Origin: an uncultured Chroococcidiopsis sp.
GTDB lineage: Bacteria; Cyanobacteriota; Cyanobacteriia; Cyanobacteriales; Chroococcidiopsidaceae
Length of the DNA stretch: 64,000 bases
Assembly: GCA_964248365.1 (NCBI GenBank)
Contig: CAXTYC010000007.1
Coordinates: 28,552 to 92,551 of the forward strand
Reading direction: 5' to 3'
Positions 3,001 through 22,313 of the stretch are shown here, in pieces. A model generated the notes under the pieces. That model made no database searches, was not told the origin of the DNA, and was given only the letters and a program-made list of their open reading frames with translations. The translations under genes and the position numbers were made by a program. Each line of letters starts with the position of its first letter. The first letter of the stretch is position 1.

Positions 3001-4475
3001 TCGCTGGCTGAGTCTGTATTTCCGGCGATGATTGTGTTTTTTACATTGACTGTGCCAGATTGATTATAGATACCACCAGCATTGCTAGTAGCTGTATTGT
3101 TTGTGATGGTCGCATTCGTCAAATTCGTTGTGCCGGATTGATAAATACCGCTGGCGTAAGAAGCTTGGTTGCCGGATATAGTGCTATCGGTGACGTTCAA
3201 CGTACCACTGCTATAGATACCGCCGCCATAATAAGAAGCCGCCTGATTGCCGGATATAGTGCTATCGGTGACGTTCAACGTACCATTATAGTTAGTAATA
3301 CCGCCACCGCCGTTGCCTCCCATGAAGAAGCCGCCACCACCACTCACCTGATTATTAGAGATAACGCTGTTGTTAACGTTTAGAGTACCAGTGCTATAGT
3401 AGAGTATACCGCCGCCACCAGGGTTGAGGATGTCATTAGCATTGCCATCTGCAATAGTCAAGCCATCGAGGGTGACATTGAGAGGAGTGTTAATGGAACC
3501 AGTAATGTTAAAGACGCGAGAAGTATTCCTACCGCTGATGGTGAGGTTGTTTGCCCCAGTGCCTTCAATGGTGAGGTCGTTAGTAATTTTCAGTTCCCCA
3601 GATGTGAGGGCGATTTTTTTTGGGGCTTGCGGGTTGCCAAAAACATTATTATCGAAAACAATCGTGTCAGATCCTGGTGTGTTATTGGCTTGAGTGATGG
3701 CATCTCGCAACGAGCCAGCCCCATTATCATTAGTATTAGTGACTGTGAAGGTTTGTCCCTGGGGCCCTAATACCTGCTTGTAAGCAGGTACAGAAATTTC
3801 TGGTGCGTCGATTTTTCCAGTCTCAAACTCTAGATTCCAGTCGCCGCCTAATCGTGCATTACCAGTTAAGTCAGTGGAAGCTGCTACATTTGCTCCGGTT
3901 AGTTGGCTCAGTTTTTCGACAAATGTTTTGCCCTTTTCACCTTCCGCCACATCGCAACCATACAACAGAATATCGCCACCTGGCTTCAAGGCTCCTCGCC
4001 AATGCTGTATTTCGTTAGCATAGTCTTTGAGGTTGTCAAGTCCCAGCTTTGTCCCACCTAGCTGCAAACTTCCTTCAGCGCCGTGCGAGATAATATGAAG
4101 GCTCGATATGCCAGTCCTACCAGCTAGGTATTTTCCAATCTGCTCGACCTCATTGCGAGCCGGATCAAGCATTGCAACTTCGGTTCCTGGTTTTAGCCCA
4201 GCAATAAGGGTTTGATAGTCTTTGATCCCAGCGTCAATAAATACAATACCGTTATTTGGTTGTTTAATTGCATTAGCTGCCTGAGAGTAAGAGTTGAAAT
4301 CCCAACTGTAAGCATTTGAACTTGAGCTACCTTTGATTCCCCAGTTAGCCTGCAAACCATCATCCAATGGGTTGGTTAGTGGTTTTTGGCTATTAACAAT
4401 AGGGTCAACAAGAGGCTGCTTCTTCCCAGAAGGCAGTAAGTTGTCTAAACCGTTTGACTGTGAAAAATCTACCAT
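1..4475 (-). CDS. Giant secreted adhesin-like protein (DUF4347 + beta-helix repeats + 5 tandem ~157-aa repeats + Ig/cadherin-like domain); 3' end lies outside the window
   Basis: ATG at 4475. Manual minus-strand translation gives IVFIDAGIKDYQTL...LHIISHG...DILLYGCDVA...GGDWNLE (DUF4347), FTVTNTNDNGAGSLRDAI, GGGIYSSGTLNVTDSTISGNQA repeats, and DTFELNVTNVNDPP at the window edge in the same frame. Absent from the ORF track, consistent with having no stop codon in the window. Confidence 0.88.
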   Translation of the reverse strand, partial: MVDFSQSNGLDNLLPSGKKQPLVDPIVNSQKPLTNPLDDGLQANWGIKGSSSSNAYSWDFNSYSQAANAIKQPNNGIVFIDAGIKDYQTLIAGLKPGTEVAMLDPARNEVEQIGKYLAGRTGISSLHIISHGAEGSLQLGGTKLGLDNLKDYANEIQHWRGALKPGGDILLYGCDVAEGEKGKTFVEKLSQLTGANVAASTDLTGNARLGGDWNLEFETGKIDAPEISVPAYKQVLGPQGQTFTVTNTNDNGAGSLRDAITQANNTPGSDTIVFDNNVFGNPQAPKKIALTSGELKITNDLTIEGTGANNLTISGRNTSRVFNITGSINTPLNVTLDGLTIADGNANDILNPGGGGILYYSTGTLNVNNSVISNNQVSGGGGFFMGGNGGGGITNYNGTLNVTDSTISGNQAASYYGGGIYSSGTLNVTDSTISGNQASYASGIYQSGTTNLTNATITNNTATSNAGGIYNQSGTVNVKNTIIAGNTDSASDPDIQGTFTSQGNNLIGDATGGSGFTNNVTGDIVGTSSSKIDPKLGPLQNNGGTTPTHALLAGSPAIDAGDDTGVSATDLDQRQQNFTRITGKHIDIGAYEFQSPVIDLPGDTISYTENALATPINSTATVTDADSTNFNTGTLTVKFTQNGANEDVLGIRNQGTATGQISVSSSDISYQGTKIGSFAGGINSQDLVITFNDKATPQAAGALLRNITYYNTSDNPSTLARTVSIQLTDGTGGTSNEVTKTINVAAVNDAPSIAYSPTQALNYTENDPATLIVDSTATVSDPDSANFNNGNLTVQFTNDSADAGDVLGIRNQGTGTGQINVSGSDISYENAIIGSFTGGTNFEPLVITFNSNATPAAATALLQNITYENTSDNPSADPRTVSFVLNDGGVGGTSQAVTRTINVTPVNDPPILSLPSNALSYTENSPATVIDSGATVSDPDSINFNSGKLTVKFDAGGSVADVLGIRNQGTADGQISVSGNSIKYGNVGIATFSGGANSQDLVINFNSGYATPAAAQALLRNITYYNTSDDPSAAPRTVSFVLTDRDGVTTSAPVTKTINVTPVNDPPSLGLSAGALSYTENDSAKVIDSGATVSDPDSPNFSGGTLTVKFTQNGSTGDILGIRNQGAGGQISVSGNNISYGSQTIATFTGGTNSQDLVINFNSNATPTAATALLQNITYYNTSDNPSIDPRTVSFELNDGNVGGTSKAVTKTINVTAVNDAPIITNLPTQALNYTENDLATVINSTATVTDADSANFNNGTLTVEFTQNGHAGDVLGIRNQGTAANQISVSGSDISYQGTKIGTFTGGTNSSPLVITFNSDNATPQAATALLRNITYYNTSDNPSEDIRTVGFKLNDGDGATSTQVTRTIQVKAVNDAPELVTRIGNKTTPEDAVFNFQVPSNTFIDVDGNQLTYTAALADGNPLPKWLTFDPTNRTFSGTPTNDDVDIPLVIRVTATDPSGLPANDTFELNVTNVNDPPFVSNSIASQLV
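350..2690 (-). repeat. Five intragenic tandem repeats of ~468-474 bp (~156-158 aa)
   Basis: Marker CCTTGGTTACGAAT(C/T)CCTAGTA recurs at ~631, 1099, 1570, 2038 and 2512. Confidence 0.92.
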
Positions 4476-4952
4476 ACGTTATCCTTCGTTACAACAGTTC
4501 TGTACAAATAAGATAAATTTGCTGATATAGGTGACAAGCAAGCTAGAAGCTTAATTGAACAAGATGGCACTATAAACCAGCAAAAAAATTGGCAGCAAAA
4601 AACAGCCAGAAGTCATCTGGTTTAACGATGTAACCGAACTTTTGACAATTGACAAATAGTGTCTTATTGGCACTATTTATCTTCCTTGGCGAAGTTAAAG
4701 CTTTGCCTAGGCTCAAAGTCTTATCACTTGAAATTTACCTGTTTAAAGTTAACCTAAAGTAACCTTGTGCCTGTAAGCAGAATTACGGAAATTTATGAAC
4801 TACTTGTAAAGTCAGTTCGTACTAACACTGAAAAAGCTGTTGAATAGCCTAGAGGGTGTTAAGCTGATGTGCGTACAATTAGGCTCCTACCATTGGTGCG
4901 TTAGGGCAAAGGTGAATACACCCTACCTTTGGTGCTATTTTACTATTAATAT

Positions 4953-4999
4953 AAGGCGACACCCAGATTCGAACTGGGGGATAAAGGTTTTACAGACCT
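4953..4999 (-). repeat. Displaced 3' half of tRNA-Cys; distal att site of element A
   Basis: 47-bp direct repeat of 17555-17601 with one mismatch (anticodon GCA changed to GTA). Confidence 0.95.
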
Positions 5000-5046
5000 T
5001 TAAAAATTGTTGTTTTACAAGTGCTTTAGCTTTTAGTAAACTAATT

Positions 5047-5066
5047 TACCCCAAACTTACCCCAAA
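5047..5066. promoter_or_regulatory. Putative integrase arm-type sites (TTACCCCAA x2) at the distal end of element A
   Basis: The same motif occurs three times in tandem at ~17418-17450, at the other end of the element. Confidence 0.65.
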
Positions 5067-5339
5067 ACTGGAAGTTTACTGATTAGGGGAGGATTGTTGA
5101 GTGCATTGACGGCAATCACCCTTAACATTGGATTTTTTTCTTTGGGAAAGCCCTAATATCACGCTTGCGAACTACAAAGTGACAGGCATTTATAAGAACC
5201 GCTCGTTTCTTATAAATTGATTTAGTTCCTAAGTTACCTAAAATTTATTTATGTAATTTTTCTATAAACATTGCTAGAAATCCATGACAAGCTACCCAAT
5301 AATTGCTGAGATTAGTTACCTAATTGAATTATGTAACTA

Positions 5340-6045
5340 ATGGGGAAGCAAGTGGTTAAAGCAATCGGCTATATAAGGGTTTCGACAGAAGAACAAGCTA
5401 ACAGTGGCGTGTCACTAGATGCACAAAAAGCCAAGCTAGAGGCTTATGCCGCGCTGTATGACATTGAGCTAGTAGGCATTGAAGTTGACGCTGGGGTAAG
5501 CGCAAAAACATTAAATCGTCCTGGGCTGCAATCTGCCAAGCGCACGGTTGGATAGCGGGGAAGCTGGGGCGCTAATCGTGGTGAAACTCGATCGCCTTAC
5601 CCGCCGCGTTGCTGACTTGGATACCCTAATCGAGCATTATTTTGGGCAAAAATTCACTCTGATGTCAGTTTCCGAGCAGATCGACACTTCTAGCGCAGCT
5701 GGTCGGCTAGTGCTAAACGTCCTAACCAGTGTTACTCAATGGGAAAGGGAAACTACCAGCGAACGCACTAAAACCGCCTTAGCGCATAAGAAAGCACAAG
5801 GGGAACACGTTGGCTCGGCTGGTTTTGGTTATACGCTTGTAGATAAGAAGTTACAGAAAGTTACCCAGGAATATCAAACCATTGCCATAATTGGGCAGAT
5901 GAAAAAAGCTGGACATACCCTGCAAGCGATCGCCGATCGTCTCAATGCCGAGGGGTATCAAACCCAGCGGGGTGGCAAGTGGTATCCGATGACTATTTCC
6001 AATGTCCTAAAAGGCGAAAAATCAACCTATGACGAGACAGGGTGA
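5340..6045 (+). pseudogene. Serine recombinase (resolvase catalytic domain + recombinase DNA-binding domain), frameshifted near 5540
   Basis: YIRVSTEEQ catalytic Ser motif and RPGLQ in 5340-5555; VVKLDRLTR, ERETTSERT and IADRLNAEG...GGKW in 5548-6045, in the +1 frame. Confidence 0.85.
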
Positions 6046-6268
6046 ACTAGCAGAACTGCGATCGCTTTTTGGGCGAAAGGCAGTTGATGAAGCGATAGCA
6101 AGTTGCGATGAAGCAAAAGCCTGGGGGGTGCAACACGCCTATGATGTTGCACAAGCATCAAGTAAGTTACAGACAATGTTACATAAGCTGCAAGAAGCTT
6201 GTGCCTATGCCCAGAGCCTAGAACCGCAACTAAGAGCAGCCTTAATCATTGCTATTCTAGAAGCTTGA
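6029..6268 (+). CDS. Hypothetical protein (element A)
   Basis: 79-aa ORF overlapping the recombinase stop codon, in operon-like arrangement. Confidence 0.6.
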   Translation: MTRQGELAELRSLFGRKAVDEAIASCDEAKAWGVQHAYDVAQASSKLQTMLHKLQEACAYAQSLEPQLRAALIIAILEA

Positions 6269-6365
6269 GTTACAGAAATCTTTATGTAATATTTATCGCT
6301 ATTTCATTATTAGTTACCTATAAGTTACCTATGATATTAGTTACATAAGCTATTAGGTAACAAGC

Positions 6366-7024
6366 ATGAGAAAGTCAAATTTACCAACAATTTTGGACAA
6401 TAACGAATATTTAGAAGTTACTAGCGGCAAAATGCTCAAGCTGGGTAGTGCTAAATTCTTTGAATGGCTAGATAACCTTGATAATCGCTCATTTAGATTT
6501 ATTGCTGGTATGGCTGGCAATCAATCTTTCACCGCACGTAAGGAAGCTAGTAAAGGGAGAGAGGGTGACTATTGGTATGGATATCGCAGGGTTGAGGGCA
6601 AGTTACGCAAACGCTACATAGGTAAAGCAGAAGATGTAACCCAAGAGCGGCTAAAAGATGTTGCAGCAGCACTTGAATCGCCTCCAGAGCCTCGCAAAAA
6701 AGCAGCTAAAACCGATGAAGTTACAGAAGAAGTATCTGTAACTCATGCACTAGAAATAGCACGTCTTATGGCAGAAATTCAGCGATTACAAAATGAGTTA
6801 GGCGATACCCAATCTCAACTAGAGGTAGCACTGGGGGAGTGCAACGCTTGAGAGACAAGGCTGCATCTTTCAAGCAGAAATCCCAACAGCTGCCAGATTT
6901 AGAAGCTATACGTGATCGCATTCTTTACGGACTGAAGCTAGGTAAGCAAGCACCGGAATATAAGCGTACTAAGGCAACAATAGATAAATTTATAGGTGAA
7001 GTGCGATTGCGTTTAACAAAGTAA
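6366..7024 (+). CDS. Putative DNA-binding protein (FTARKE...YWYGYRR...KRYIGK domain + coiled coil); probably one gene with a -1 frameshift at ~6836
   Basis: ORFs 6366-6851 and 6839-7024 overlap. Restoring one base at CTGGGGGAGTG gives L-G-E-V-Q-R-L-R-D-K. The N-terminal motif resembles the DUF6788-like / LuxR-MalT N-terminal DNA-binding module (by recall). Confidence 0.6.
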
Positions 7025-7420
7025 CCATCCCCAGTTTCTAAAACTGGTCATTGTTTTGTGTATCATTGCTTACTTAAGCCAATTACTAGTGCTGTGAACA
7101 CTCTTTACTAGTGCAAATTAGGGAACAGCCCTTAGTAAATTCCTTTAGCATAAACGCATTTAGTTATTTTCTCGGATTACATCAAACCTCAAGCGCGATT
7201 ACGCTTTAGGACACAATAGAGCGTGAGCTACATCAAATGAATATTAAAAAACCACTAGTAATGAACAAATCAGAAATTGGCAAAGCTCATTAGTGAACCA
7301 TAGCTGAAAACAGGGCTGGTGCAAGAAATTTTTGCGATTTCGTTGGGGGACACTTATCTCCCAGCAGTTAGCTGTGAGAATAACCGCTTCATAAACCTAA
7401 AACACTTTTAAGGCTATATC

Positions 7421-9043
7421 ATGACTCAACAAAAAAATCTGGAACTAGCTAAGCAGGGTAATCCGCAAGCGATCGCAGACCTAATGAATCGTTCTTTACA
7501 ACCCAAAGGTATCACTGTATCAGCGAGTTTCACAGATGGTTGTTTACAGATATTGCTGGAGTCAGATCGGATTCTAAATCAGCAGAACTTAGTGACGTTT
7601 CTTTATAAAGAATTAATGAATTTAGGGGCTGAAGCTATCAAAGTGGTGCAAGTTTACGGGCAACGGACAGGTGAAGATTTTCCCGATTGGACTCAAGAGC
7701 TTGAACTAGGAGCAATAAAGCCACCATTACTAGAGATAAAAACAACGGTTCAATCTTTCATCCCTAACAATTTTGAAGCATACGAGGAGCCTGGGCTCCA
7801 AGAAAAAGTTAGACAAGGGGATGTAAATGCTATTACAACACTACTAAACCGTACTTTAGAACACAGGGGTATTACTGCCAAAGCAAATTTACAGAATGAC
7901 TGTTTAAAACTCATTTTAGAGTCAGCACAGGTTCCAGATGAAAAAGTTTCAATAACACTTATCCGCCGAGAGTTGATCGGCCTAAGAGTAGAATACATCA
8001 AAACTGTGAATGTTTACGGGCGAGAAATAGGAGAGGATTTTCCCGCTTGGACTCAAGAGTTTGAGCTTGCCACCCCAGGCAATTCAGCCTTGGTAGCAGC
8101 GGTGGAACAGCGGTCGAAGCGCTCAGAGTTTTTAGCAACTTTGCAGACTTTCAAGTTTTCCTCTGTTGTCCCCTACAAGCAAGCTCTCAGTGCCGAATTG
8201 TACAACAGTAATACTGCGAGGCTTCTGCTATTTTTTGGTCTGTTTCCTCTAGCGGTGAGGTTGCTTGTTGGCAATGCGGGATTGGAGTATACAGCTTGGA
8301 TCTTGGGAATTTACTATTCCTCAATCTGGGGAGTTGTACTGTATAACCTGATCAAGCCCGCACAGTTTTCTTGGGGGAACACGCTCAAATGTGTCCTGTT
8401 TACTGCATTTGTCGGCATCCCACTACTGCTGTTTATTTCCAAAATTCCCCCGTTTAGTGTTCTCAACGCTGCAACTCAGGAGTCAGGGCTAACACGGGTT
8501 ATTGGCTTTGTGCTAGGGGTAGGTGTACTGGAGGAATTGTGTAAGGCTTTACCAGTTTACCTATTTCTACTACGTCCAGCTAAATTGAGTGAGCCACTAA
8601 CTTCAGCCTTCTATGGGGTAATGTCGGGACTAGGGTTTGCAATCAACGAAGGGGCTTTGTACTCGCTACGAGTGTATGCTCCTAGTTTGATAACCAATCT
8701 TGTAGAAGGGGAAATCGATCGCGGATTCGGCTCTTATGTTCTTTCAAATACCATCCGGTTTGTCTCCTTACCACTGAATCATGCTATCTGGGCAGGCATT
8801 GTTGGTTACTTTTTGGGGTTAGCAGCGATTAACCCGTCTCGAAAGGCTCCAATTATCTTCATTGGTGTTGCAATCTCAGCTGTGCTACATGGTTTCCACG
8901 ATACTTTCTCTGATAATTTGCTTTGTCTTGCTATTGACGCATTTTCTATTTTGCTGTTTGTCGCCTACTTGCGCCGCAGCAAATGGATGGTAGAGGAAAT
9001 GCAACAAGCAGAGTTAGATTACAAAATTTCAAATTCTAGATAG
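7421..9043 (+). CDS. PrsW-family intramembrane metalloprotease with two copies of an N-terminal cytosolic domain
   Basis: Multiple TM helices with EELCK, FAINE, H and HGFHD motifs; N-terminal repeats KQGNPQAIADLMNRSLQPKGIT and RQGDVNAITTLLNRTLEHRGIT. Confidence 0.85.
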   Translation: MTQQKNLELAKQGNPQAIADLMNRSLQPKGITVSASFTDGCLQILLESDRILNQQNLVTFLYKELMNLGAEAIKVVQVYGQRTGEDFPDWTQELELGAIKPPLLEIKTTVQSFIPNNFEAYEEPGLQEKVRQGDVNAITTLLNRTLEHRGITAKANLQNDCLKLILESAQVPDEKVSITLIRRELIGLRVEYIKTVNVYGREIGEDFPAWTQEFELATPGNSALVAAVEQRSKRSEFLATLQTFKFSSVVPYKQALSAELYNSNTARLLLFFGLFPLAVRLLVGNAGLEYTAWILGIYYSSIWGVVLYNLIKPAQFSWGNTLKCVLFTAFVGIPLLLFISKIPPFSVLNAATQESGLTRVIGFVLGVGVLEELCKALPVYLFLLRPAKLSEPLTSAFYGVMSGLGFAINEGALYSLRVYAPSLITNLVEGEIDRGFGSYVLSNTIRFVSLPLNHAIWAGIVGYFLGLAAINPSRKAPIIFIGVAISAVLHGFHDTFSDNLLCLAIDAFSILLFVAYLRRSKWMVEEMQQAELDYKISNSR

Positions 9044-9170
9044 CTTCATAGAATCAATTAAACAGAATCTATATAGGGAAAATCATATTTTTACATCTAA
9101 ATAGTAACTGTTACTTCTATGAAAGTTATTGACTCTTTTGTCTAGTCAATTAATTAATATTAATATAAAT

Positions 9171-10157
9171 ATGCTACAATCTGATTTTTTAGAAGTTATA
9201 AAACAGGGTAGAATAGAGGCTATTTCTACCGTAATAAACCAAGAGTTACAGCCCAAAAAAATTATTGCGAAAGTAAAATTAAATGATAGTTGCTTACAAA
9301 TAATTCTGGAATCATCTCAAGCTCCAGAGCAAAAAGCGGCAGTCGCTATCATCACTAAAATAATGATACATTTAGAAATTACATTTATTAATACTGTAAA
9401 ACTTTATGGACGTAAAACAGGAGATAAATTTCTAGCTTGGCGTCAAGAAATAGAAATTTTAAGTAGCAATATTTCTCAATTAGAAAAAAACTCTTCTCAA
9501 TCTAGTACAAGTAAAATTGAAGCTACGCCTGAGAAGGTTTCACAGTTCCCTGCTCAACTACCAAGTAAAACTAACCATCTCAAAACTAATCGAGATTTGC
9601 AAAAAACTGTAATTATGGGTACTTTTATTGCAAGTGGTATGATCTGCGCATCTGTAGTTGTCGGTTTTTTCTTGAGCAAATCTACACAACTATCTCCAAA
9701 ATCACCATTAGTTCAGCAATCTCTTGTTCCAGAGCATTCTTCAAATCCTTCTATTCCTCAACTACAGGCTTCAGAAGAAACTGTACAAAATCAAAATATT
9801 AGTGGTAAATGGGTAGGTGTATTAAGCCAATCAGCTGGTGGAGTTGCAAGCAAATACAAGTATGAAATGCTTTTGTCTCAAAATGGACAAAGTGTAGAAG
9901 GAATTACCAGAGAAGAGATAGTAGAAAACCCCCAAATTTATGGAGTAATACGAGTACGTGGCTCAACATCTGGTAATGTGTTTCGTTTTGAAGATGTTGG
10001 AGTTGTTGAAACAAGTATACCAGGATCTATATGGTGCATAAAAAATGGAACTCTACAATATACTTTCTCTGGAGGTGTTGAGTCTTTAAGTGGAGCTTGG
10101 AAAGGTCGTGATAATTGCCCACCAGGAGAAATTTACTTAGAGAAGCAAGCTAACTAA
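9171..10157 (+). CDS. Single-pass membrane protein sharing the N-terminal domain of the PrsW gene; C-terminal beta-rich domain with two Cys
   Basis: KQGRIEAISTVINQELQPKKI domain, one TM segment (VIMGTFIASGMICASVVVGFFL), then SGKWVG...LSGAWKG. AT-rich gene. Confidence 0.8.
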   Translation: MLQSDFLEVIKQGRIEAISTVINQELQPKKIIAKVKLNDSCLQIILESSQAPEQKAAVAIITKIMIHLEITFINTVKLYGRKTGDKFLAWRQEIEILSSNISQLEKNSSQSSTSKIEATPEKVSQFPAQLPSKTNHLKTNRDLQKTVIMGTFIASGMICASVVVGFFLSKSTQLSPKSPLVQQSLVPEHSSNPSIPQLQASEETVQNQNISGKWVGVLSQSAGGVASKYKYEMLLSQNGQSVEGITREEIVENPQIYGVIRVRGSTSGNVFRFEDVGVVETSIPGSIWCIKNGTLQYTFSGGVESLSGAWKGRDNCPPGEIYLEKQAN

Positions 10158-10246
10158 CAGAAAACGTATGCAGATTTAAACAATTAAGTTGAAATACATT
10201 TTCATTACTTGAGTGGTGTTACACTAGCTGCAACTAGGTATAGCAT

Positions 10247-10828
10247 TTATTGCTGGTTCTTGGCTTCCTGTTCTAGCTGAAGCATTGCACCCCTAATTGC
10301 TTCCCGTAGCGAGTCCTCAAACGTCGTACCCTCGAAGGTCTGAAGTAAGATATCTCCCATTCGCTGCCCACCTGCTAGCTCTAGTGCAGTGCGATCAACA
10401 ATAAACTTTTGTTGCTCCCTTTGAGCAGCCGATGATCTAGCTTCGCGCATTAGACTTGGTAAGAATGCAAACAGCTTGAGGATTTCAGGGTCGAGTTTAT
10501 TCGGGGATGCTTGCCAAATTTGGGTTAGCTGCCTGATAAGTGAAAGTGCAATACCCTCAATGCTAGCTAACGAGCGATCGCCTTCTAACCCGTCGTAAGT
10601 TTCCGCAAGCTGATTGAGCATTTGAGCTTGCGCTCCTACTTCCTTATAGTCATTCCACCATTTATAAACAGCAGAAAGACAAACATCATGCCCTCTAGCA
10701 TTCAACCAGCGGTGCATCTGCGTCACGTCTGTGTTGAAACGAACGAGTTTGTCAAACTCGCGTCGTTCCCCCGCTGACATTTGGGAACGGAGCTTGTCTA
10801 CCCTGTGTTGTCGTTTACTCCTAGTCAA
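10247..10828 (-). CDS. DUF3486 / phage Mu gp27-like protein (possible small terminase-like)
   Basis: RVDKL...MHRWLNARGHDVCLSAVYKW N-terminal HTH pattern followed by a helical region; lies downstream of the replication genes. Confidence 0.5.
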   Translation of the reverse strand: MTRSKRQHRVDKLRSQMSAGERREFDKLVRFNTDVTQMHRWLNARGHDVCLSAVYKWWNDYKEVGAQAQMLNQLAETYDGLEGDRSLASIEGIALSLIRQLTQIWQASPNKLDPEILKLFAFLPSLMREARSSAAQREQQKFIVDRTALELAGGQRMGDILLQTFEGTTFEDSLREAIRGAMLQLEQEAKNQQ

Positions 10829-11031
10829 TGTACTAAATTCAGATGATTTTCCTTTTCAATTATGCTTTTAACTTTTTGAGGTAATTTTCTTCCTCCAATT
10901 TTTCTAGCTCAAGTAGTTTTCAACTTTTCAACCTAAAGTAGTTTGTAGTGTTTTTGTAGTATATCGTAAATTCCTGTCGAATTATCTCTGCCTATAAAAA
11001 AACCTTTTTGGGAGGCGATTTCACTACCAAA

Positions 11032-11217
11032 TTACCTGCGTTTTCGATTTCCTTTGTACCCTGCAACCAGCAACAGACCATCTCTGGCGGAGCGCATAAG
11101 CTTGACAGCGTATGGCTTTTGAGTGATTGAAGTTACCAGTTCATGGCATTGCCTAACTAGCTGTTGCCGTTCGTCAGAAACAGTTATGGTTTCAATCCCA
11201 TTAGAAGTATGATTCAT
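11032..11217 (-). CDS. Small hypothetical protein
   Basis: 61-aa ORF starting 2 bp after the helicase stop codon. Confidence 0.6.
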   Translation of the reverse strand: MNHTSNGIETITVSDERQQLVRQCHELVTSITQKPYAVKLMRSARDGLLLVAGYKGNRKRR

Positions 11218-11219
11218 AG

Positions 11220-14200
11220 TTATTTTGACTGCTGCCAGTGCTTTAGCTCCCGTAGTGGAATGCGATAACCGTAATCACCTGCTACCCAACGAACAGTTGC
11301 TGTCCCGTCGCTGTTGATGGATTGGATTTTTCCAACCCATCCCGTATTACCTCGTTTACTTACCTCCGTGCCGACTTCAAAGCTTGCATTTGTTGATAAT
11401 GCGGGAGCATCCCAATCAACCTGCTTTAATCCGCTGTTAGATGCGGGTTGAGAGTTTGAAGGTTTTCCGCTCGAAAATGCTGACCCGCTCGAAAATGTTG
11501 ACCCTAATGTTGACCCCTGGTCAACACGCTCAAAGCTTTGCGGTGCGGAAGCTTCATCTAAAATGTTGACCTGTTGACTTTGTTGACTCCTAGATAAAGT
11601 ATCCGTTTGGTCTGGTTCTACCTCCGCTAGGGACGAATTATCCGGCAGCTGCTCCTCGACTACCTGTTTTTGCTCTTGTCCCAAAAGGTGGTCAACATGG
11701 TCAGCATGGTCAACATTTTGGTCAACAATCGGCTGGGATAACCTATTATCAACAGTTTTAGCAACAAATGGTGAGGTCAACATTTGGTCAGCATTTTGGT
11801 CAACACGGTCAACCCAGTCAACATTTTGGTCAACAATTTGAGGAACTAGGGTTTTGCCTTCCAACTTGGCATATCCCATTGCTTCCAGTTCCCTAAAGAA
11901 TTCCAAAATCTTATCCGTTTTGACGTTTCTAAGAGCTTTGATGGAAGCTTTTGCTTTCCGAGTTGGGAGTTCCCCTAGTTGCTGTAGTTTTTCTAGAATT
12001 TTGTTAAGTAGCGGGGTAAGTTCCCCTTGTGCTGCTTCTGCATCCGAATGAATTAGCAACACTTGGCCAAGGTAAAACTCACTTAAGCTTCGTGCTGCTT
12101 TAACTTGCTTAAGAGGGATGTAGGAAGAAGGGATTTCACCAGCTACTACACTCCAGAGAACGTGAAGAATACCTGCTAAACGTGCAGTGTACCCTTGCAT
12201 TTTAGCGATTGCTGCTCTCATACCTTGGCGTGGTTCGGCAAGCTTGCGCTGTTCTAGCGTCCAATGCCAATCTTGGTAGTAACAATCAGCCTCAGGGGCA
12301 AAGCGATATTGAATCGGAGGTAAATTATTTAGCTTGAGATAGATAGCATCTAGTAGTTCCTCTATCTCAAATTTTTTTGTGTCGTCGTCGGGGAGGCGAA
12401 ATGCTTTTAAGGGTGCATGATACCAAAGGAACCGCCCCCATTGTCCCTGCTCATCCTCTAGATCGCCCAGCAAGCTGCGAAGCTTTCCAGGTTGAATCGC
12501 TCCAACGATTGAGCTTGCATCGTGGGATAGTGAGAGGCGAGTACCGCTAGCACGATTTTTTTTGACTCCATTGCCGTTCCAACCACTTAAAATGCCTTCT
12601 CGGTCTGCACCTCGTCCACCTTTATACGCACCATAAGAAGCAAACAACCCTGAAAGCTCATCTTTACAAATCAATATGCCCTGTTGCGGTTGTTGAGCTT
12701 TAATGTTGTCTAATGCTTCGCTAGTGGCATTGTCTACAAAGTATTCGCGTGGTGGTAGGGGAGGTTCTGGCTGCTCGTCTTTATCCTTGGATTTATCCTT
12801 TTTCCATGCTGCCAAATCTTCCTTATACTGCTGTTGCGCTTCCTCGTAGTGTATGTCTTCTTCGCTTTGAAGCTTCCGCAAACTTTTTAGAATTGCGTTG
12901 AATGTCGGTGATTTTCGGTTTCCTGACTCCGAAGATATGCCAGTGTAAAATACCAACGGTTCTACAAAATTGCTACATTCTCTAACGATTACTCGCGTTT
13001 CTGGGTGCAGCAAGCTAGCAGCCGTAGGAAGCAACACCGTCAGCAGTGCTTCGACATCTACCCCCATCCAAGTGGATAGGCGTTCCAAGGGTTGCGCTAA
13101 GTAAGGATGCAGATAACGCGAGAGAGTAAGACGGCGATCGCCTATTGATAGCAACCGATTTAATTCTTCTGCTCTTTCAGTTCGCCCTTCGATTAAATCG
13201 ATTTCGGATTCGATCGCTTCTGCTAACTGCTCCACTTCGCGCAGTTGCCTCCCAGTTGACCTTGCTAGTTCTAAGAATGCTGCCTTGCGTTCGGATGCTA
13301 CATGGTTGCGATTCAGGATTTCCAGCACTCTGTCTCGCAAACTTACAGATGAAATAGAGGGGGTGTTATTAGAGCTGGAGCGCTTGTCTTTACTGTTGGT
13401 AGTAGGAGTAGGAATGCGATCGCGTTTCAGCAGATTTAGTTTAACGTGGTTATGCAGTACCAAACTTTGATACAATTTGCTACACCATCTTCTTTGCAGC
13501 TAGGAGTAGGAAGATCTGCTTCTGCTGACTTCCAAATGCTTTTCCATTCGGGTTCTGCCCATCCCTTACCTGATGGGCAACGATGGCAGTAATCCAAGAA
13601 TAATCGCCAAGGATCGCCATCGAAACGCTGCCCTATGCTTTGAAGATAACTAGTAGTACCAATGAGATCGGCGGCTAGTTTATACCCGTTGTTACTTCGC
13701 GCTCCTTCACCTACACCGGATTGAAGCAAACAGCGAGAGTCTTTAGAAAGGCACAATTCCAGCGGTACCGACTCAGGCACGGGAACTCTAATATTTTCGT
13801 ATTGAGATAACAGCCGATCAGATGTTTGCTGAAATGGGGTTGACTGTTGCTCTAGCAAGGTGGGCTGTTCTATCTGGGGTTGCTGTTGCTTTCTAATTTC
13901 CCTAAGCTTTTCAAGTAATTGCTCAGGTGAGTACTTTTTGCCAGATTTTTGCACAAACTTCGATTGCACTGGTTCGCGCCCTGGTTTAATATGCCAACCC
14001 CCAGCCAGCCGGAACACTCTTGATGGATTTTTATTAGCTGAGTCTGCCCCCATTATTTCAATTAGTAGCTGCTGTAATTCGCGCCACTGTTCTACATCCT
14101 CTAAAGGAGTGTCAAAAATCCAATAGGAATGGGCGGACTTTCCGCCGCTATATATCGTGAAAGTTGGTTCTAGGAATCCTACTGTCTTCCACTGCTGCAG

Positions 14201-14515
14201 CTGTTCTTCCACTGGGCGGTCGTCCCACTCGCAGAAAATGGCAACACATTGTTTAATATCCTTGTCTTCGTGACCTCCACCAGCACCGTTAACGACTACA
14301 TACATGCCGCGTCCATCTTGCTGGAGAGCTTCTGCGTTCTGCCAAAACATGTTTGCAAGTTTTCGCCCCTTATCGTCGTTTTTCCGGGGATCTTCAGAGG
14401 GGTAGAAGAACCGCAAGTAGGCCTGATCGGACTTGTAACCTAAATAGTCCAGATGTCGCCGTGCCTGTTCCCGATCAATTTTTAAAGGATGGGACGTGAA
14501 TTTGTTAGCGTACAT
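11220..14515 (-). pseudogene. RepB-type primase fused to a DUF3987 helicase-like domain, split by a 1-nt frameshift at ~13455
   Basis: Primase motifs AIFCEWDD, SGGKSAHSYW and NPSRVFRLAG in 13436-14515; SESGNRKSP Walker A, DELSGLF and GAIQP in 11220-13475. Adding one base gives W-Y-W-H-N-H-V-K across the junction. Confidence 0.8.
11478..11835. repeat. Iteron-like array TGTTGACC/GGTCAACA (~17 copies); putative replication origin inside the helicase 3' end
   Basis: Left cluster (11478-11588) is mostly TGTTGAC; right cluster (11690-11835) is the inverse GGTCA(A/G)CA at 9-12-bp spacing. Confidence 0.75.
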
Positions 14516-14814
14516 CAGCGCTGCCCTCCCTCTATGTTAGATTCCATCCACATTTCAAAAGCTTTTTGAAACGTTCCGGTGGGTATCCCGTGGAAACGTG
14601 CTGCCCAATTGAGAGCCAAAAGGCGACGATGCGGTAATTTATGTTGAGACGCGATCGCGCTGAAGCTTTCCTCGACTCGATTGAACTGAGAACCTAATTC
14701 CGGAAGGCGTTGCAGGGTCTGATTGGATGTAGCAGGGATAAAATCAGAATCAGAAGGTTTTTCTTGAGGGTGATCGTTGCCCCCGCAGCGATCGCTTTCA
14801 TTTTTGCTGTTCAT
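14515..14814 (-). CDS. Hypothetical protein (element A replication operon)
   Basis: Overlaps both neighbours by 1 bp (TGATG junctions), indicating translational coupling. Confidence 0.7.
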   Translation of the reverse strand: MNSKNESDRCGGNDHPQEKPSDSDFIPATSNQTLQRLPELGSQFNRVEESFSAIASQHKLPHRRLLALNWAARFHGIPTGTFQKAFEMWMESNIEGGQR

Positions 14815-15083
14815 CAGCCAGCCCTCCGACCGCGTGCTTTAGGCTGGTTGGATGCTAAAGAAGCCAGATAGCGTTCAACATCTTGCTGGTGAACCCCAGG
14901 GCTGCTTCTGTGCTGAATCCAAGAGTGGAGAAGTTCCAGATTGTACCTGATTGAGCGGGAATTTAACCTAACCCAGTGAATTCCTTCAATTAGTTCCCCG
15001 CATAATCGGTACTTTTTTAGCGTTTCATGGCTGTAACCAGTTAGCTGTTCAGCCTGTCGCTTGTTTATAAACTGATTAGTCAT
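14814..15083 (-). CDS. Excisionase/AlpA-like HTH DNA-binding protein
   Basis: 89 aa; INKRQAEQLTGYSHETLKKYR HTH plus EGIHWVR...IRYNLELL wing; first gene of the replication operon. Confidence 0.75.
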   Translation of the reverse strand: MTNQFINKRQAEQLTGYSHETLKKYRLCGELIEGIHWVRLNSRSIRYNLELLHSWIQHRSSPGVHQQDVERYLASLASNQPKARGRRAG

Positions 15084-15169
15084 CTTAAGTACCTAACTTT
15101 ATGGATAGGTATCTGTAGATTGACAAAAAGGCAGGCTGATTTGGGTTTTCGCACCGATGTTAAGAGATA

Positions 15170-16063
15170 TTAAGACTTATATGTGCCTCCTTCTTTTTGA
15201 TTTTCTTGCTTTTGACCCCTGCAATACGCATGACCTTTCATTTGCCGAAAACTACTCTGAATGAGAGCATTTAGCAAATTTTTTTGACACTCATATTCAT
15301 TTATTTTATGCTTTAGATTCTTGTTGTTTGTCAGGCTTTCAGCTATTTTGCAAGCTTTAACACAAGAAAGTTCCAACCTTGCAAACTCCTTAAAGGGAAA
15401 GAAATCCTTTAAGGCTTCATTCGCATAAACATCAATAATATTTTTTCCACTATGCCTTTGACGTTTTTTAGGCTTAAGAGGCTTTCCCTTGCTAGTTTCA
15501 ATCCGATCAATTGGGCATCCTTCATCAATAGCTTGAGTAATTATTTTCTTCATCCGGTAGAGATCGTATCGATGCCTGGGTCTAAACTCGTGGTTGATGA
15601 AGCTCACATGCACTTGCGCGTTTGCATCATTGGCAAGGATGAAAAATAATACGAGTCCAGGAGAATCAAATTCAAAGAAGGCTCCAGCACCTTCAAATAC
15701 ACGAATAATGTCATCCCAGCCTTCTTGAAGCAGCGCATACAGAGCAAGATAAAAATCTCGCAACTGGGCAATCAATTTTCTATCTCCGGGTTGCTCCCTT
15801 ATGAATTTCCTTAATTCAGCGCTTAATAATTCTTTCGGTTTTTGACTTAACAAATGTAGTGTATTTGGTTGTCCTGAAAAGTAGGCTTTTAGTTGTGAGA
15901 AGTAAGCTTTGAGTTCCTGCCGTAACATCTGAAACAGTGTCTTCACCTTTTCCCAAAGCTCAAGCTGGACATCTGTACCATGTTGTAACCAGGAGGGAGG
16001 AGGATGATGATCGAGTACCGCGAGAATTAGCTGCTGTTCAGCTTCAGGAATCTTTAGTATCAT
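15170..16063 (-). CDS. Hypothetical protein downstream of the integrase
   Basis: ~300-aa ORF with no recognised motif; start codon uncertain (16063 or 16090). Confidence 0.65.
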   Translation of the reverse strand: MILKIPEAEQQLILAVLDHHPPPSWLQHGTDVQLELWEKVKTLFQMLRQELKAYFSQLKAYFSGQPNTLHLLSQKPKELLSAELRKFIREQPGDRKLIAQLRDFYLALYALLQEGWDDIIRVFEGAGAFFEFDSPGLVLFFILANDANAQVHVSFINHEFRPRHRYDLYRMKKIITQAIDEGCPIDRIETSKGKPLKPKKRQRHSGKNIIDVYANEALKDFFPFKEFARLELSCVKACKIAESLTNNKNLKHKINEYECQKNLLNALIQSSFRQMKGHAYCRGQKQENQKEGGTYKS

Positions 16064-16160
16064 CTCGTTACCTGTAAAACTCAGGTACAAAAAAGTTCTT
16101 GCTTATTTCCCGCATATTGACAGTAAATCACCTCTGGCGAGTTACCTAAAGCTTAGGCAA

Positions 16161-17366
16161 CTAAAGCTCAGGAACCTGCAAGTCTCGTTTATTTCCCGCA
16201 TAGTGTCGGTAGATAATTTCTGGACTATTTCCAACCCATTTAGCGACATCTTTTGCGTCAATATCAGCTTCAAGGCAAAGCGTGATGAAGGTGTGTCTGG
16301 TTTGGTATGGCTTCCGATACTTGCTTACTTTGCCCTCTCTGACTAACTGAGTAACAATTCCTTCAATCATCCTTCCATGTCTGTTTTTGTAACCTTTCCA
16401 AGCATGATTAAGGAAATCTCCTGTATCAATAAATCCGCCTTCTTTGGATTTGAATACAAACTCGTCGGGGTTAGGGGTTTTAGGTCTAACAGATTCTAAT
16501 ATCTGTCTGACCCGATCATTTATGGGAAACTTTCGCTTTCTCTGCGTTTTCAGTCCATCCTTGAGGACTAACCCTTTACCACCTGCTACTACAGCCTGCT
16601 CAAAGGTGATAAATCTGTCGTCAATATGTTTCCATTGAAGAGCTATTGCTTCAGATGGTCTACAGCCAGTGAAAAAGCAGAACTTTACATATGGGGCATA
16701 GTACGCATAGTATTTGCTGTTTTCAAAGGCTTCGATAATGACATCTCTTTCCTCCCTACTAAATGGGTTGATATCGCTCTCTTCAGACTCTGACTTAGGT
16801 AGCTTTACCTTTTCAGCCATTCCTGCGAAGGGATTGGCTTTAATTAACCCGGAATCTACAGCCCAATTACAGCAAGCCGAAATGTTTGTAAGAGTTCTTT
16901 TAGCAGCATTCGGGCTTAATTTTGCTACTAGGTGATCCCTGATTTGAGGGGCATTATCTAGGGACTGGGTAGGTAAATTAGCAATATGATTGCGGTATTT
17001 TCTGTAATCCAGCTTAAAGGTAGAGGGGCTTACCTGTGGTTTCTTGAACTCCGTGTATTGCTCCCACAACTCGGATAGCGAGCGCTCTGGGGTAGGAGTT
17101 GGGGTAAAAATTGGGGTAACGATACTCAGTGCCGACTGTGGCTTATACTTCGCTAGGGTAGGATCGAGTCTGTCGTATGTGATGTCTGACTCGATCAATT
17201 TAGCCTTAGCCTCCGCTGCTTTGCGGTTCACTTTATTATCGGGCAACCCTAACGAGAGATAGTGCCGCTTCCCACCATGAGAGAACACTAGCTGTAATCG
17301 CCCATTAGAAATTTTAATTTGAACAGAACCTTTAGAGGCTTTATGCTGCGTGCTTTGTGAATACAT
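16161..17366 (-). CDS. Tyrosine integrase with N-terminal arm-binding domain (element A)
   Basis: GRLQLVFSHGGKRHYLSLGL arm domain; TGCRPSE, PYQTRHTF, GNSPE and RHY catalytic motifs; adjacent to the tRNA att site. Confidence 0.95.
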   Translation of the reverse strand: MYSQSTQHKASKGSVQIKISNGRLQLVFSHGGKRHYLSLGLPDNKVNRKAAEAKAKLIESDITYDRLDPTLAKYKPQSALSIVTPIFTPTPTPERSLSELWEQYTEFKKPQVSPSTFKLDYRKYRNHIANLPTQSLDNAPQIRDHLVAKLSPNAAKRTLTNISACCNWAVDSGLIKANPFAGMAEKVKLPKSESEESDINPFSREERDVIIEAFENSKYYAYYAPYVKFCFFTGCRPSEAIALQWKHIDDRFITFEQAVVAGGKGLVLKDGLKTQRKRKFPINDRVRQILESVRPKTPNPDEFVFKSKEGGFIDTGDFLNHAWKGYKNRHGRMIEGIVTQLVREGKVSKYRKPYQTRHTFITLCLEADIDAKDVAKWVGNSPEIIYRHYAGNKRDLQVPEL

Positions 17367-17386
17367 TAGGTATAGTTAGATATTTT

Positions 17387-17470
17387 ATTGGGGTAATCAC
17401 CTCTACTATACTCTGCTTTACCCCAATCTTACCCCAATTTTTTACCCCAAAATACCCTAAAAATACCTAA
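17387..17470. promoter_or_regulatory. Putative arm-type site cluster (TTACCCCAA x3, one inverted copy, degenerate copies)
   Basis: TTTACCCCAATCTTACCCCAATTTTTTACCCCAAAATACCCTAA lies between the integrase start and the tRNA. Confidence 0.65.
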
Positions 17471-17474
17471 GCTT

Positions 17475-17488
17475 AGTACATATGTTCT
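17475..17488. promoter_or_regulatory. Putative LexA (SOS) box upstream of the integrase
   Basis: AGTACATATGTTCT matches the cyanobacterial LexA consensus RGTACNNNDGTWCB exactly, ~110 bp upstream of the integrase ATG. Confidence 0.7.
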
Positions 17489-17555
17489 AATAACACATCA
17501 TAAAGGAATCGCTAGAAACCCTTGAAACACATACTAAAGGATTGATTTATCTTAA

Positions 17556-17627
<72 letters not shown>

Positions 17628-17642
17628 GCACTTAAGTATTCT

Positions 17643-17651
17643 ATTATATCA
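17643..17651 (-). promoter_or_regulatory. Extended -10 promoter (TGnTATAAT) of tRNA-Cys
   Basis: TGATATAAT lies 15 nt upstream of the mature tRNA 5' end; an identical copy is at 19591-19599. Confidence 0.7.
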
Positions 17652-17671
17652 GTCACCCTTGGGCATCCTAG

Positions 17672-17884
17672 AGGAGCCATTTAGGAGCCAAAGCCTGGTT
17701 TCTCAGTAGAGACATAAGCAGAAATACTTATGGAAACCCAGTCTGAACTAGGGTTTAACCTGCAATCAGCTTAAACTAGTATAACATGACAGCTCAGATT
17801 ATCAGCTTGAAGCTGTTCAGTTTCGATTTATTAACATAGGTTGACAAATCTCCTAACTTCTGCTTTGGCTCCTAAATGGCTCCT
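17672..17884. repeat. 22-bp perfect inverted repeat AGGAGCCATTTAGGAGCCAAAG (17672-17693 / 17863-17884); putative arm sites of integrase B
   Basis: Direct reverse-complement comparison; four further AGGAGCCA copies at ~19372, 19389, 19450 and 19477. Confidence 0.75.
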
Positions 17885-18039
17885 GACTAGTCAACCTTCA
17901 GCCTAAAACCTTCAACCTTCAACCTTCAACCCACTATTGACCATCAATACACAGTCTAAAGGTACTATTATAACCCCAGCTACTGCCAAAGCCTCTATTA
18001 GTACCTCAATCTTTCGAGGATAATACCCTTGAGCGCACA

Positions 18040-18088
18040 AAAGAACACCCGCTGTGTAAGTACTTAGACTAATCGGCGGGTGTTCTTT
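18040..18088 (-). terminator. Hairpin terminator downstream of integrase B
   Basis: AAAGAACACCCGC...GCGGGTGTTCTTT inverted repeat. Confidence 0.55.
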
Positions 18089-18133
18089 ATGATTTAGTAG
18101 ATTCTAGATTCTGCAAAGTTGGGAGCCTATCAC

Positions 18134-19328
18134 TTAGACTACTGGAACTTCCATCTTGAGTAATCCACCTGCATAGTGCCTCAAGATCACCTCTGGGCTG
18201 TTGCCTACTAGCTTAGCAACTTGAGGCACTGTAACCCCCGCATCTATTGCCATAGTTACAAAGGTATGCCTAGTTGTATAGGGGCATCTGTAAGAGGCTA
18301 CAATACCTTCCTTGACTAGCTGAGGTAGTATACCCTTGTAAACTTTATTACCAGCCTTACAGCCCTTCCAGACCTGGTTTGTAAACTTAGAGTTGTTGAT
18401 AGGCAACCCTGTAGGAGACTTAAAGACTAGATCTTCTAACTGGCAGTTATCAGGTTTGATTGATAGCAGCAAATCTTTTAGGACTGGGTTACAGGGAAAC
18501 TTCCTGATCTTACCAGTCTTGGTAGACTTCCTGATCTTCATTCCAGAGTCATAGGAGTCAGAGAAAGTTATCAGGGAACAGTCTTTAGTATATATGCTTC
18601 CACTGTAGGGCGATCGCTTCACCAGTCCTACAACCAGTCAAGAACATGAACCTAACAAAGGGGTAATAGTGCCTATGATTCGGGTGTTCTTGAAAAGCTT
18701 TCAAGATGGCATCTCTTTCAGATACACTGAAGGGATCTATTAAATCACTCTCCTGTTTATTCTTAAGTTTTATCTCTACTGCCATACCTACAAAGGGGTT
18801 GTCTTTGAGCATTCCTGACTTGACAGCCCAATCACAACAGGCAGAGAACCTAGTTAATATCCTCTTGGTAGTGTCTGTTGAGGTTGTAGCTAACAGATAA
18901 TCCCTAATAACTACTGCTTGATCTAAGTCCCTCGTTGGCAGTTTCTGTATATGATTAGTAAACTTTAATAGATATTCTTTCTTAAAGGTTGTAGCGGCAA
19001 CTTGAGACTTCCTGTAATCACAGTACAGCTTCCATAGTTCCTCCAAATCAGCAGCCTTAGCGGTTCTTACAATAGTTAGTTTAGGTCTAAACTGCTGAGT
19101 GTATCTCTCCAGAGTTGGGTCTAGCTGTCCAGTCCTGATGTCATCCTCAATCTGCCATGCTATAGTCTGGACTTTCTTTAGGTTTTCAGAGATTGCATCA
19201 AGCTTTGTATAAATATATCTTGGGCTGTCTTGGGCTATGGCTCTTGGTAGTCTTATCCTCTACTTGCCTTGTTTCTCCTCTATGGCTACAGTCCCTCTGA
19301 CTGCTTTAGGTTTCTCTTGGGTTTGCAT
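18134..19328 (-). pseudogene. Tyrosine integrase B, inactivated
   Basis: ATG at 19328 gives MQTQEKPKAVRGTVAIEEKQGK*RIRLP (in-frame TAG at 19260-19262), continuing in frame to TGCRTGE; frameshift at ~18590; then PYTTRHTF, GNSPE and RHY. Confidence 0.9.
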
Positions 19329-19535
19329 TTAGTTCCTGGGTTGTTATCTTATAAAATAGGATAAAGGTGTCAGGAGCCAAGTGTCGAGAGGAGCCACCAT
19401 ATTCTATTTAATAGAGGGTCAAACTATAACCCCTAGCCTTCTGCCAACCAGGAGCCAACCAAGAGCAATCCATCTTAGGAGCCAACAACTAAACCCCCAG
19501 AAAGGTTAGGATTTCGGGGGTTGATCTGGGTTATT

Positions 19536-19599
19536 AGGTTTTGCCACCTCTGCCTTACCACTTGGCTATGTCGCCGCACTTAGGTATTGTATTATATCA
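19536..19599 (-). repeat. Displaced 5' half of tRNA-Cys plus promoter; distal att site of element B
   Basis: GGCGACATAGCCAAGTGGTAAGGCAGAGGT-GGCAAAACCT; anticodon loop damaged (CT changed to G) and no T-arm follows. Confidence 0.93.
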
Positions 19600-19715
19600 A
19601 AATTATAGACTCAATTGTATCATCTGCATATAGTGCGTTAGGCGTTGATGATGCCGTACACGATGACGGTATATACTTTATTGTACGCCGTAACGCACTT
19701 TACCAATTTTACCGA

Positions 19716-20312
19716 TCAGGCTTTAACCTCATCTGCAAAACTATTCCAGCGGACAAAGTGAAATGGTCCTGCGACTGAACCCCAGACGTGTTCATCAGTT
19801 TGGGGATCTCGCCCTCGGTCAAGGCTGATAAATTTATCCTCGTCAATCTCAAATTCACTATCAAGATAAGTGTTTCTGCCTTTACGTACAACCATACAGC
19901 CTTTACCTGGTTGAACTTTGCCTTTAAAGCTGTGTCCCGTCCACTCTACAATCATGTTGCAGCCTGGTAACTTCTCTAAGCGGTCAGATGTTAAAGTGTG
20001 AAGACGCTCAATTTGACGGGAAGCACCATAAAACTGTTCTTCTTGCTTGATGGTGTAGTTTTCGATTTCGATGCCCGAACCTGCGTTAATTAAATTCAGC
20101 ACCCGTACCCGATAGGGGTTATTCAGCATATAGTCATAAGCTTGTTCTACATAAAAGCTGACTCCTGATAATAATTCTGGAGCAAGAGGACGCATACAGA
20201 CGCGAATGTGTGCAAAAAAGGGTGGATTCTCAAAGGCTTGTTCTTGGTTGCTGAAATCCGCAGCCATCCAGCGAGCTAACGTTACGATATCCGTAGAATG
20301 AGTCATTATCAA
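19716..20312 (-). CDS. cpcT: CpcT/CpeT-family phycobiliprotein chromophore lyase
   Basis: LARWMAADFSNQEQAFENPPFFAHIRVCMRP; EQAYDY...PYR; SLDRGRDP...WGS. Confidence 0.92.
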   Translation of the reverse strand: MIMTHSTDIVTLARWMAADFSNQEQAFENPPFFAHIRVCMRPLAPELLSGVSFYVEQAYDYMLNNPYRVRVLNLINAGSGIEIENYTIKQEEQFYGASRQIERLHTLTSDRLEKLPGCNMIVEWTGHSFKGKVQPGKGCMVVRKGRNTYLDSEFEIDEDKFISLDRGRDPQTDEHVWGSVAGPFHFVRWNSFADEVKA

Positions 20313-20376
20313 AAAACTTATGAAAATCAGTTGCTTTCATACAACCTGGAATTATTTTAAAACTTCCTGACCAAAA

Positions 20377-20437
20377 CAGTTATCAGTTATCAGTTACCAG
20401 TTACCAGACGCGCAGTTATCAGTTATCAGTTATCAGT
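20377..20437. repeat. STRR-type heptamer tandem repeat (CAGTTA(T/C))n
   Basis: Visible tandem heptamers. Similar arrays occur at ~24856, 29455, 30725-30840, 39000-39115, 44128-44330, 52253-52352 and 59290-59420. Confidence 0.85.
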
Positions 20438-22144: not shown

Positions 22145-22313
22145 ATTTTAGACAATTGCAGAAGCCCCACGCTAGAAGACAGAATAGGGTTTTCATGTCA
22201 GATTAGAACATTGATTTTTCTGACTTGTTAATTCCTTCTAACTTCTGACTTTTGACTTCTGGTTTCTAACTCCTCTTAGCACTTAATACATTTTGTGTTT
22301 AACTAGGGGAAGT

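Follow-up and report, generated by a model that had tools for sequence, protein, structure and literature searches.

In the genome of an uncultured Chroococcidiopsis sp. (GenBank assembly GCA_964248365.1), the gene for tRNA-Cys stands between two displaced fragments of itself. It lies in a 64,000-nt stretch of contig CAXTYC010000007.1 (positions 28,552–92,551), here called the window, to which all coordinates refer. With a probability of nearly nine in ten, two tyrosine-integrase elements rebuilt this gene, the smaller (B, 1.95 kb) contributing the DNA up to the anticodon loop and the larger (A, 12.6 kb) the DNA after it. The native slot of the gene behind cpcT, together with relatives of the B integrase gene (intB) that form 5'-fragment islands, makes it most likely that all of tRNA-Cys except its 7-nt loop is element DNA. 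The same two lines support the attribution, made in an earlier note on this DNA, of the 3' half to A and of the 5' half with its promoter-bearing leader to B. That note proposed that the whole gene may be mobile-element DNA, which is supported for both halves outside the loop; the 7 nt of the loop cannot be assigned. The locus offers a clean case of an essential single-copy gene for which both halves and the promoter were probably all delivered by mobile elements.

The tRNA-Cys gene and its displaced halves

The working gene, tRNA-Cys(GCA), occupies 17556–17627 on the minus strand and constitutes both the left junction (attL) of A and the right junction (attR) of B. It was recognized by ARAGORN and Rfam, the Rfam search giving no match besides tRNA, and is the sole Cys gene among the 43 tRNA and transfer-messenger RNA genes found by ARAGORN in the 5.58-Mb assembly; no other tRNA-Cys copy appears genome-wide. 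Its displaced 3' half, the attR of A, lies at 4953–4999 (minus strand) and matches the gene at 46/47 nt with a spacing of 12,602 bp (genome-wide blastn, E 2.5e-16). The displaced 5' half, preceded by the native leader, forms the attL of B at 19536–19599 (minus strand) and is placed behind cpcT as the gene is in relatives. This fragment and its 24-nt leader (19546–19599) match at 52/54 nt with a spacing of 1,948 bp (E 3e-21), and the match continues across the loop to 19536. No further copy of either fragment was found in the assembly by blastn. As the earlier note had described, displaced halves flank the gene on both sides and the two duplications overlap only at the anticodon arm, in the shared core AGGT-CTGCAAA-ACCT (17587–17601, minus strand).

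The loop, CTGCAAA in the gene, is altered in both displaced copies, to CTGTAAA at 4953–4999 and to a 6-nt GGCAAA at 19536–19549. Tyrosine recombination usually needs matching overlap sequences, and these changes should therefore hinder precise excision of A and B. The element-borne copies are 96–98% identical to the host halves, so that the tRNA sequence of the chimera is unchanged and nothing points to a new function for the host. A hairpin that follows the displaced 5' half is not significant (z −1.2). An 11-nt match, AATAACCCAGA, is shared by the window just behind this half (19521–19531) and by a related element (L098) behind a tRNA-Gly fragment, and may be a conserved protein-binding site or chance.

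Two elements with separate arm-type repeats

Both intervals hold a tyrosine integrase of their own, as the earlier note described, one intact and one broken. In A, whose body (5000–17554) is bounded by the 47-nt repeat, intA encodes an intact 401-aa integrase (16161–17366, minus strand; PF12167 and PF00589) starting 190 bp behind tRNA-Cys. In B, intB (18134–19328, minus strand) is a pseudogene, interrupted by a TAG at codon 23 and thrown out of frame near 18590. The two integrases are 44–46% identical, which rules out intB as a recent duplicate of intA.

Each element has repeats of its own at its ends. The motif GGAGCCA occurs eight times within 4953–19599, always ≤240 bp from one of the two ends of B and never in A, against ∼0.2 sites expected in B from a genome frequency of 0.095 per kb. 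The right end of B (17672–17884) carries a 23-nt perfect inverted repeat with two GGAGCCA sites per arm, and four direct sites lie at the left end (19373–19485); both sets are complete and stand 55 and 75 nt from the loop, as in relatives. In A, TTACCCCA occurs in 10 copies, eight of them ≤ about 460 bp from an end, and is absent from B. Two copies lie at the right end (5045–5067), and three direct and one inverted at the left end (17389–17463). From their position and from the known structure of the element attachment sites (attP) of tyrosine integrases, these end-clustered repeats are probably arm-type integrase sites. A further pair of A-type repeats falls within the coding sequence of intA (17099–17123).

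A is an ordinary 3'-fragment island, with a co-oriented 3' fragment downstream of the tRNA gene (tDNA), an internal tyrosine integrase and a length within the 2–200 kb of Islander-type islands. B is a 5'-fragment island in the state of a decayed remnant: a co-oriented 5' fragment lies upstream, at the native position. Its integrase with stop and frameshift and its 1,948 bp, under the 2-kb minimum, both fall outside the Islander filters, and with this small size and broken integrase it would be missed by island finders.

Upstream of the working gene, B carries a copy of the host leader (17628–17651, minus strand; 22/24 nt identical to the native leader) with an extended −10 element, TGATATAAT, at 17643–17651. 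A second promoter-like site, TGTTATACT, matches the consensus at 17778–17786 (minus strand) in the B arm region, and similar sites occur in related elements. With the leader duplicated in B there are thus two candidate promoters, and a B-borne promoter would drive tRNA-Cys.

Native position of the gene

cpcT (19716–20312, minus strand; PF06206), which marks the window as cyanobacterial, is a conserved host gene upstream of tRNA-Cys. Among 29 cpcT loci of relatives, each scanned by ARAGORN with 1.5-kb flanks, 15 contain tRNA-Cys, at 82–187 bp from cpcT in eight and at 1.1–1.4 kb in seven. In all five same-genus loci where cpcT was found, tRNA-Cys follows it directly, within the 82–187 bp group. 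In the window this slot is occupied by the displaced 5' half and not by the gene. The leader at 19576 and beyond resembles the native leader of a relative (G005), and the non-coding DNA of B has no match in any of the 29 loci. In these relatives the DNA now upstream of the gene (17652–17900) was not found next to tRNA-Cys, so that this check did not contradict the earlier note. In three relatives (G001, G003 and G006) a single tRNA-Cys precedes the gene that follows a 3' fragment in two others (G004 and G002), and these three are therefore empty sites for their own species. In G002, the 3' fragment stands in inverted orientation on the side of cpcT, at a distance of 34 kb (contig C49, 39553–39601 and 73377–73480), an arrangement that suggests inversion through an A-like island.

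5'-fragment islands made by relatives of intB

Screening of 30, 43 and 65 loci in three overlapping sets, plus one locus (L193), yielded six further 5'-fragment islands with relatives of intB. Two close kin of 9.5 and 10 kb (L098 and L099) are at tRNA-Gly(GCC), and four of 5.7–10.8 kb (L128, L130, L132 and L193) at tRNA-Cys. Apart from L193, which holds an integrase remnant, they have full-length integrase open reading frames (ORFs) 57–60% identical to intB and the geometry of B. In all six, the integrase lies behind the 5' fragment in the same direction and an intact tRNA closes the element; the fragments end at tRNA positions 38–43, except in L130 (position 54). When intB alone was used to scan the genome collection, the 28 loci obtained were mostly tRNA-Phe 3'-type integrases of about 40–50% identity, and a 5' fragment was absent from all of them. 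At tRNA-Cys such fragments are rare, the 5'-half pattern occurring twice in two of the 258 genomes with any match (401 searched). Viral contigs gave no match to the leader and tRNA start of B, and an alignment of the B clade found one distant locus among viral sequences.

The layout of the locus recurs in L128, in the order cpcT, 5' fragment, intB-like gene, 7 kb, intact tRNA-Cys, A-type repeats and an intA-like gene (65.5%). Double occupancy of one anticodon loop is thus not a one-off. In a quick tree, intA groups with the integrases at other tRNA-Cys sites in G002, G033 and L128. Behind the tRNA of L130 lies a 21-codon remnant of another integrase start (E 1.8e-5), seen weakly also in a further genome (G027); none was found behind the tRNA in L098 and L099, and in L132 and L193 the sequence ends too early.

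Related integrases occur in other settings. One element with a B-clade integrase (L133, 5250–5360) occupies a site other than a tRNA gene, apparently within coding sequence, and its core resembles the tRNA-Cys loop as CTGTAAA, the variant also present in the displaced copy of A. In L103, L135 and L137 a third geometry is found, with the integrase pointing from the 3' fragment back towards the intact tRNA.

Age and state of the elements

Contigs of four metagenome runs were aligned to 3000–22900, with 32 of 456 pieces listed. B is covered by contigs from three runs of two other studies with about 4–9% differing letters, and host-gene pieces among those listed differ by about 3–14%. Of the contigs from other samples, one of 1000 nt runs from B into the 5' fragment, and a second links the start of intA to tRNA-Cys. 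The bridging run has one extra base in the displaced loop, so that the 6-nt loop looks private to the present strain. The interior of A has almost no cover in the four runs, which is not counted as evidence.

Two proteins from 3913-nt contigs match intB at 88–89% identity. Codon 23 encodes Trp in both, neither is broken where intB has its frameshift, and both are split near residue 134. This suggests separate decay of intB in sister strains, unless the split is an assembly error. B looks like an old resident and is probably older than A, which looks younger given its intact integrase and cargo. Recombination between the 54-nt repeats could remove B without harm; thus, the host is not strictly addicted to it.

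Course of events and alternative explanations

In the proposed course of events, A and B would be independent elements that both integrated in the anticodon loop of the only tRNA-Cys gene. The attP of B would have carried a promoter and the tRNA 5' half; when B integrated, the promoter and 5' half of the host would have been left behind cpcT, and a complete gene would have re-formed 1.9 kb downstream, with DNA of the element as its new upstream region. A would have brought a 3' half, displacing that of the host by 12.6 kb, and B would have decayed to its arms and a broken integrase. With both elements crossing at the anticodon loop, the halves would meet without a host stretch beyond the loop. 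The recombination events and their order are inferred from the present arrangement.

Several observations weigh against this account or limit it. By the earlier note both outer fragments would be native, and the 5' half behind cpcT is placed as in relatives, but the adhesin-side flank of the 3' half is not syntenic. Synteny on that side is absent in G001, G003, G004 and G006, where the tRNA is followed not by the adhesin gene but by one that is on another contig of the present genome; synteny therefore gives no confirmation that the flank outside A is native. Empty sites were expected to join cpcT through one tRNA-Cys to the adhesin side; relatives have the first join, and the second was not seen. 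Neither a strain without B or without both elements, nor an excision circle or a transcript, was seen, and no contig joins 4999 to 17602 or 17651 to 19600 among the matches listed from the four metagenome runs. L128 was examined for 3.7 kb behind the tRNA, and a 3' fragment would lie beyond that. The tree was obtained by a quick method with 39 rows. In favour of the account, a TG-n-TAnnnT site lies ≤200 nt upstream of the rebuilt tRNA in seven of seven elements against 12.5% of 5000 random genome windows; this background was drawn largely from coding sequence and underestimates chance matches in AT-rich spacers, and no such site lies within 200 nt upstream of the tRNA in a further relative (L134). 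On the other side, the 24-nt leader duplication (22/24 nt) is peculiar to B, the other six 5'-type elements sharing 0–5 nt of leader, and for this reason local secondary exchange may have contributed.

The same leader, being host-lineage DNA duplicated only in B, speaks for an explanation in which B began as a 3'-fragment island and a second copy of the host leader and tRNA arose behind it, either by local duplication or when the element excised imprecisely and re-entered. The upstream copy would then have lost its 3' half, and the working 5' half would be a duplicated host half, not one borne by attP. One of the nearest relatives of intB (L101, 57.5%) does stand behind a whole tRNA-Cys in 3'-type geometry. 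Yet the 5' half is copied unchanged and the 3' side is unrecognizable from the anticodon stem, a sharp edge at the core that recurs in L128, L132, L193, L098 and L099, and B has complete arm repeats on both sides at distances like those of its relatives. Such a duplication is therefore unlikely. Far less weight still falls on an assembly artefact, in which collapsed or misjoined repeats made one or both fragments. The assembly is a draft of 102 contigs, and among the sequencing runs listed none contained >0.28 of the sampled words, but the repeats are short (47 and 54 nt), lie in unique sequence and deviate from the gene at several sites. Moreover, two junctions are bridged by contigs from independent samples and the same layout exists in L128. 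Rebuilding of tRNA-Cys by A and B thus remains the favoured explanation.

Possible origin of 5'-type attachment sites

Four loci (L101, L133, L130 and L134) form one clade in the quick tree (support 100), within which the tRNA half kept by the element varies. L130 keeps the 5' half and the element of G027 the 3' half. The left end of the latter is L101, with a whole tRNA-Cys. Its right end, found on a second contig of that draft genome, consists of homologous element DNA that runs to the AGAGC of the host leader; where the 5' half would follow, there are 30 unrelated bases. That these two contigs belong together rests on flanks shared with L130. L134 combines right-end DNA, a whole tRNA, left-end arms and an integrase, and on this sequence organization is an attP or a tandem joint. 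The last arm site is 120 nt from the loop in L130, G027 and L134 (within 1 nt), and the loop-to-first-arm distance is 55 in B and 56–62 in these three. Integrase orientation relative to the tRNA is the same in L101 (3'-type) as in L130 and B (5'-type).

Collectively, 5'-half, 3'-half and whole-tRNA right ends at fixed orientation and arm spacing suggest how 5'-type sites may arise, namely from an attP with the complete gene that loses one half or the other, a direction of change that is not proven. A more far-reaching version, tentative and given somewhat less than even odds, treats the tRNA half on attP as a spacer that can be exchanged. From the L134 state, in which attP bears a whole tRNA together with a promoter of its own, either half would be lost at fixed orientation and arm-to-core distance, giving 5'-type (L130 and B) and 3'-type (G027) elements. 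B would be the domesticated end point of this process, a remnant inherited with the chromosome across the lineage whose promoter drives the sole tRNA-Cys, the other half of that gene having later been replaced by A. If true, 5'-restoring sites could arise directly, with no reversal of orientation.

An element of Mesorhizobium loti, described by Zhao and Williams in 2002, reportedly also has the tRNA 5' end on its attP, as B does, under a title that speaks of a reversed target orientation. B and its relatives differ from that case as reported, in that their integrase orientation is as in 3'-type kin and only the half carried changes: L101, L130 and B share one orientation, and reversal in that sense does not occur among them.

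Comparison with known systems

Of the 3919 islands counted in Table 1 of the Islander report (PMC4383910), 159 have a 5' tDNA fragment. B resembles an Islander anticodon-centred site A with a 5' fragment in its tyrosine integrase, in the restoration of the target by the island and in the 5' fragment left upstream; it differs from Islander 5' islands in lacking an intact integrase, in its length under the 2-kb filter and in a tRNA-Cys also used from the 3' side. Recombination on the 5' side is given as considerably rarer in a passage citing Zhao and Williams 2002 (PMC6563490), a study also cited in PMC1635311. In Klebsiella pneumoniae, the arg2A gene has one island at each end (bioRxiv 10.1101/2020.11.02.365908) and, like tRNA-Cys here, is a single tRNA gene with an upstream and a downstream island at once. 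According to that preprint, the arg2A 5' site comprises the acceptor 5' strand, D-stem and D-loop and is used by a separate integrase subclade (I.d), whereas both elements here cross at the anticodon loop of a gene that is, unlike arg2A, the only isoacceptor.

Elements of about 12 kb at tRNA sites with tyrosine integrase, excisionase, primase/helicase and cargo, as in A, are also known as the tycheposons and cryptic tRNA-site elements of Prochlorococcus (bioRxiv 10.1101/2020.12.28.424599). The likeness is one of size, site and gene content, and tycheposons, in the portion of the preprint at hand, grow on one side of the tRNA only. In tRNA-dependent lysogeny, an essential single-copy tRNA likewise relies on element DNA and an element promoter (PMC10865867). 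The phages in the available part of that account carry a separate whole tRNA and rebuild no gene, whereas the gene here is rebuilt at the junction.

In view of the Islander 5' islands and the two-ended arg2A case, neither the ingredients nor their combination are new in kind, and the tRNA-Cys arrangement is an uncommon way of integrating at a tRNA site that has partial precedents. The rebuilding of a whole gene by two anticodon-loop elements, an attP-borne tRNA promoter and a polarity switch at fixed orientation were not found in the literature searched, which left most subscription journals outside. Nor was one small integrase clade with 5'-half, 3'-half and whole-tRNA right ends at unchanged orientation and arm spacing found described. 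These close variants make a small set of integrases and attP sites for testing the evolution of rare 5'-restoring sites.

Other features of the elements and their surroundings

In B, a terminator-like hairpin follows intB (18038–18091, minus strand; z −3.1, with 1/200 shuffles as good). In A, the minus strand encodes an excisionase-like gene (14814–15083; phrog_539, E 4e-5) and a replication module of a DUF3987 helicase-like gene and a primase/helicase-like gene (11220–14515). Cargo on the plus strand includes a serine resolvase split over two ORFs (5340–6045; PF00239 in both, PF07508 in the second) and a PrsW-family protease (7421–9043; PF13367). Within 7421–10157, two cargo genes have a repeated N-terminal domain in common (71-nt repeat family D6), fused in one of them to the PrsW protease. 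A is adjoined by a large repeat-rich gene on the minus strand (window 1–4475; ∼470-nt repeats, 1590 aa in the genome), which is covered by contigs of all four metagenome runs.

Many Calothrix and Rivularia contigs (L071–L097) have a 3' tRNA-Phe fragment or a whole tRNA-Phe directly before a related integrase, a layout that points to tandem arrays at tRNA-Phe. Elsewhere in the present genome (G000, contig C1, 244–32772), a second island of ∼32 kb is integrated at tRNA-Met, with its 3' fragment at 244–289. Its integrase is related to intA and its arm repeats look the same as those of A, which makes cross-talk in trans possible.

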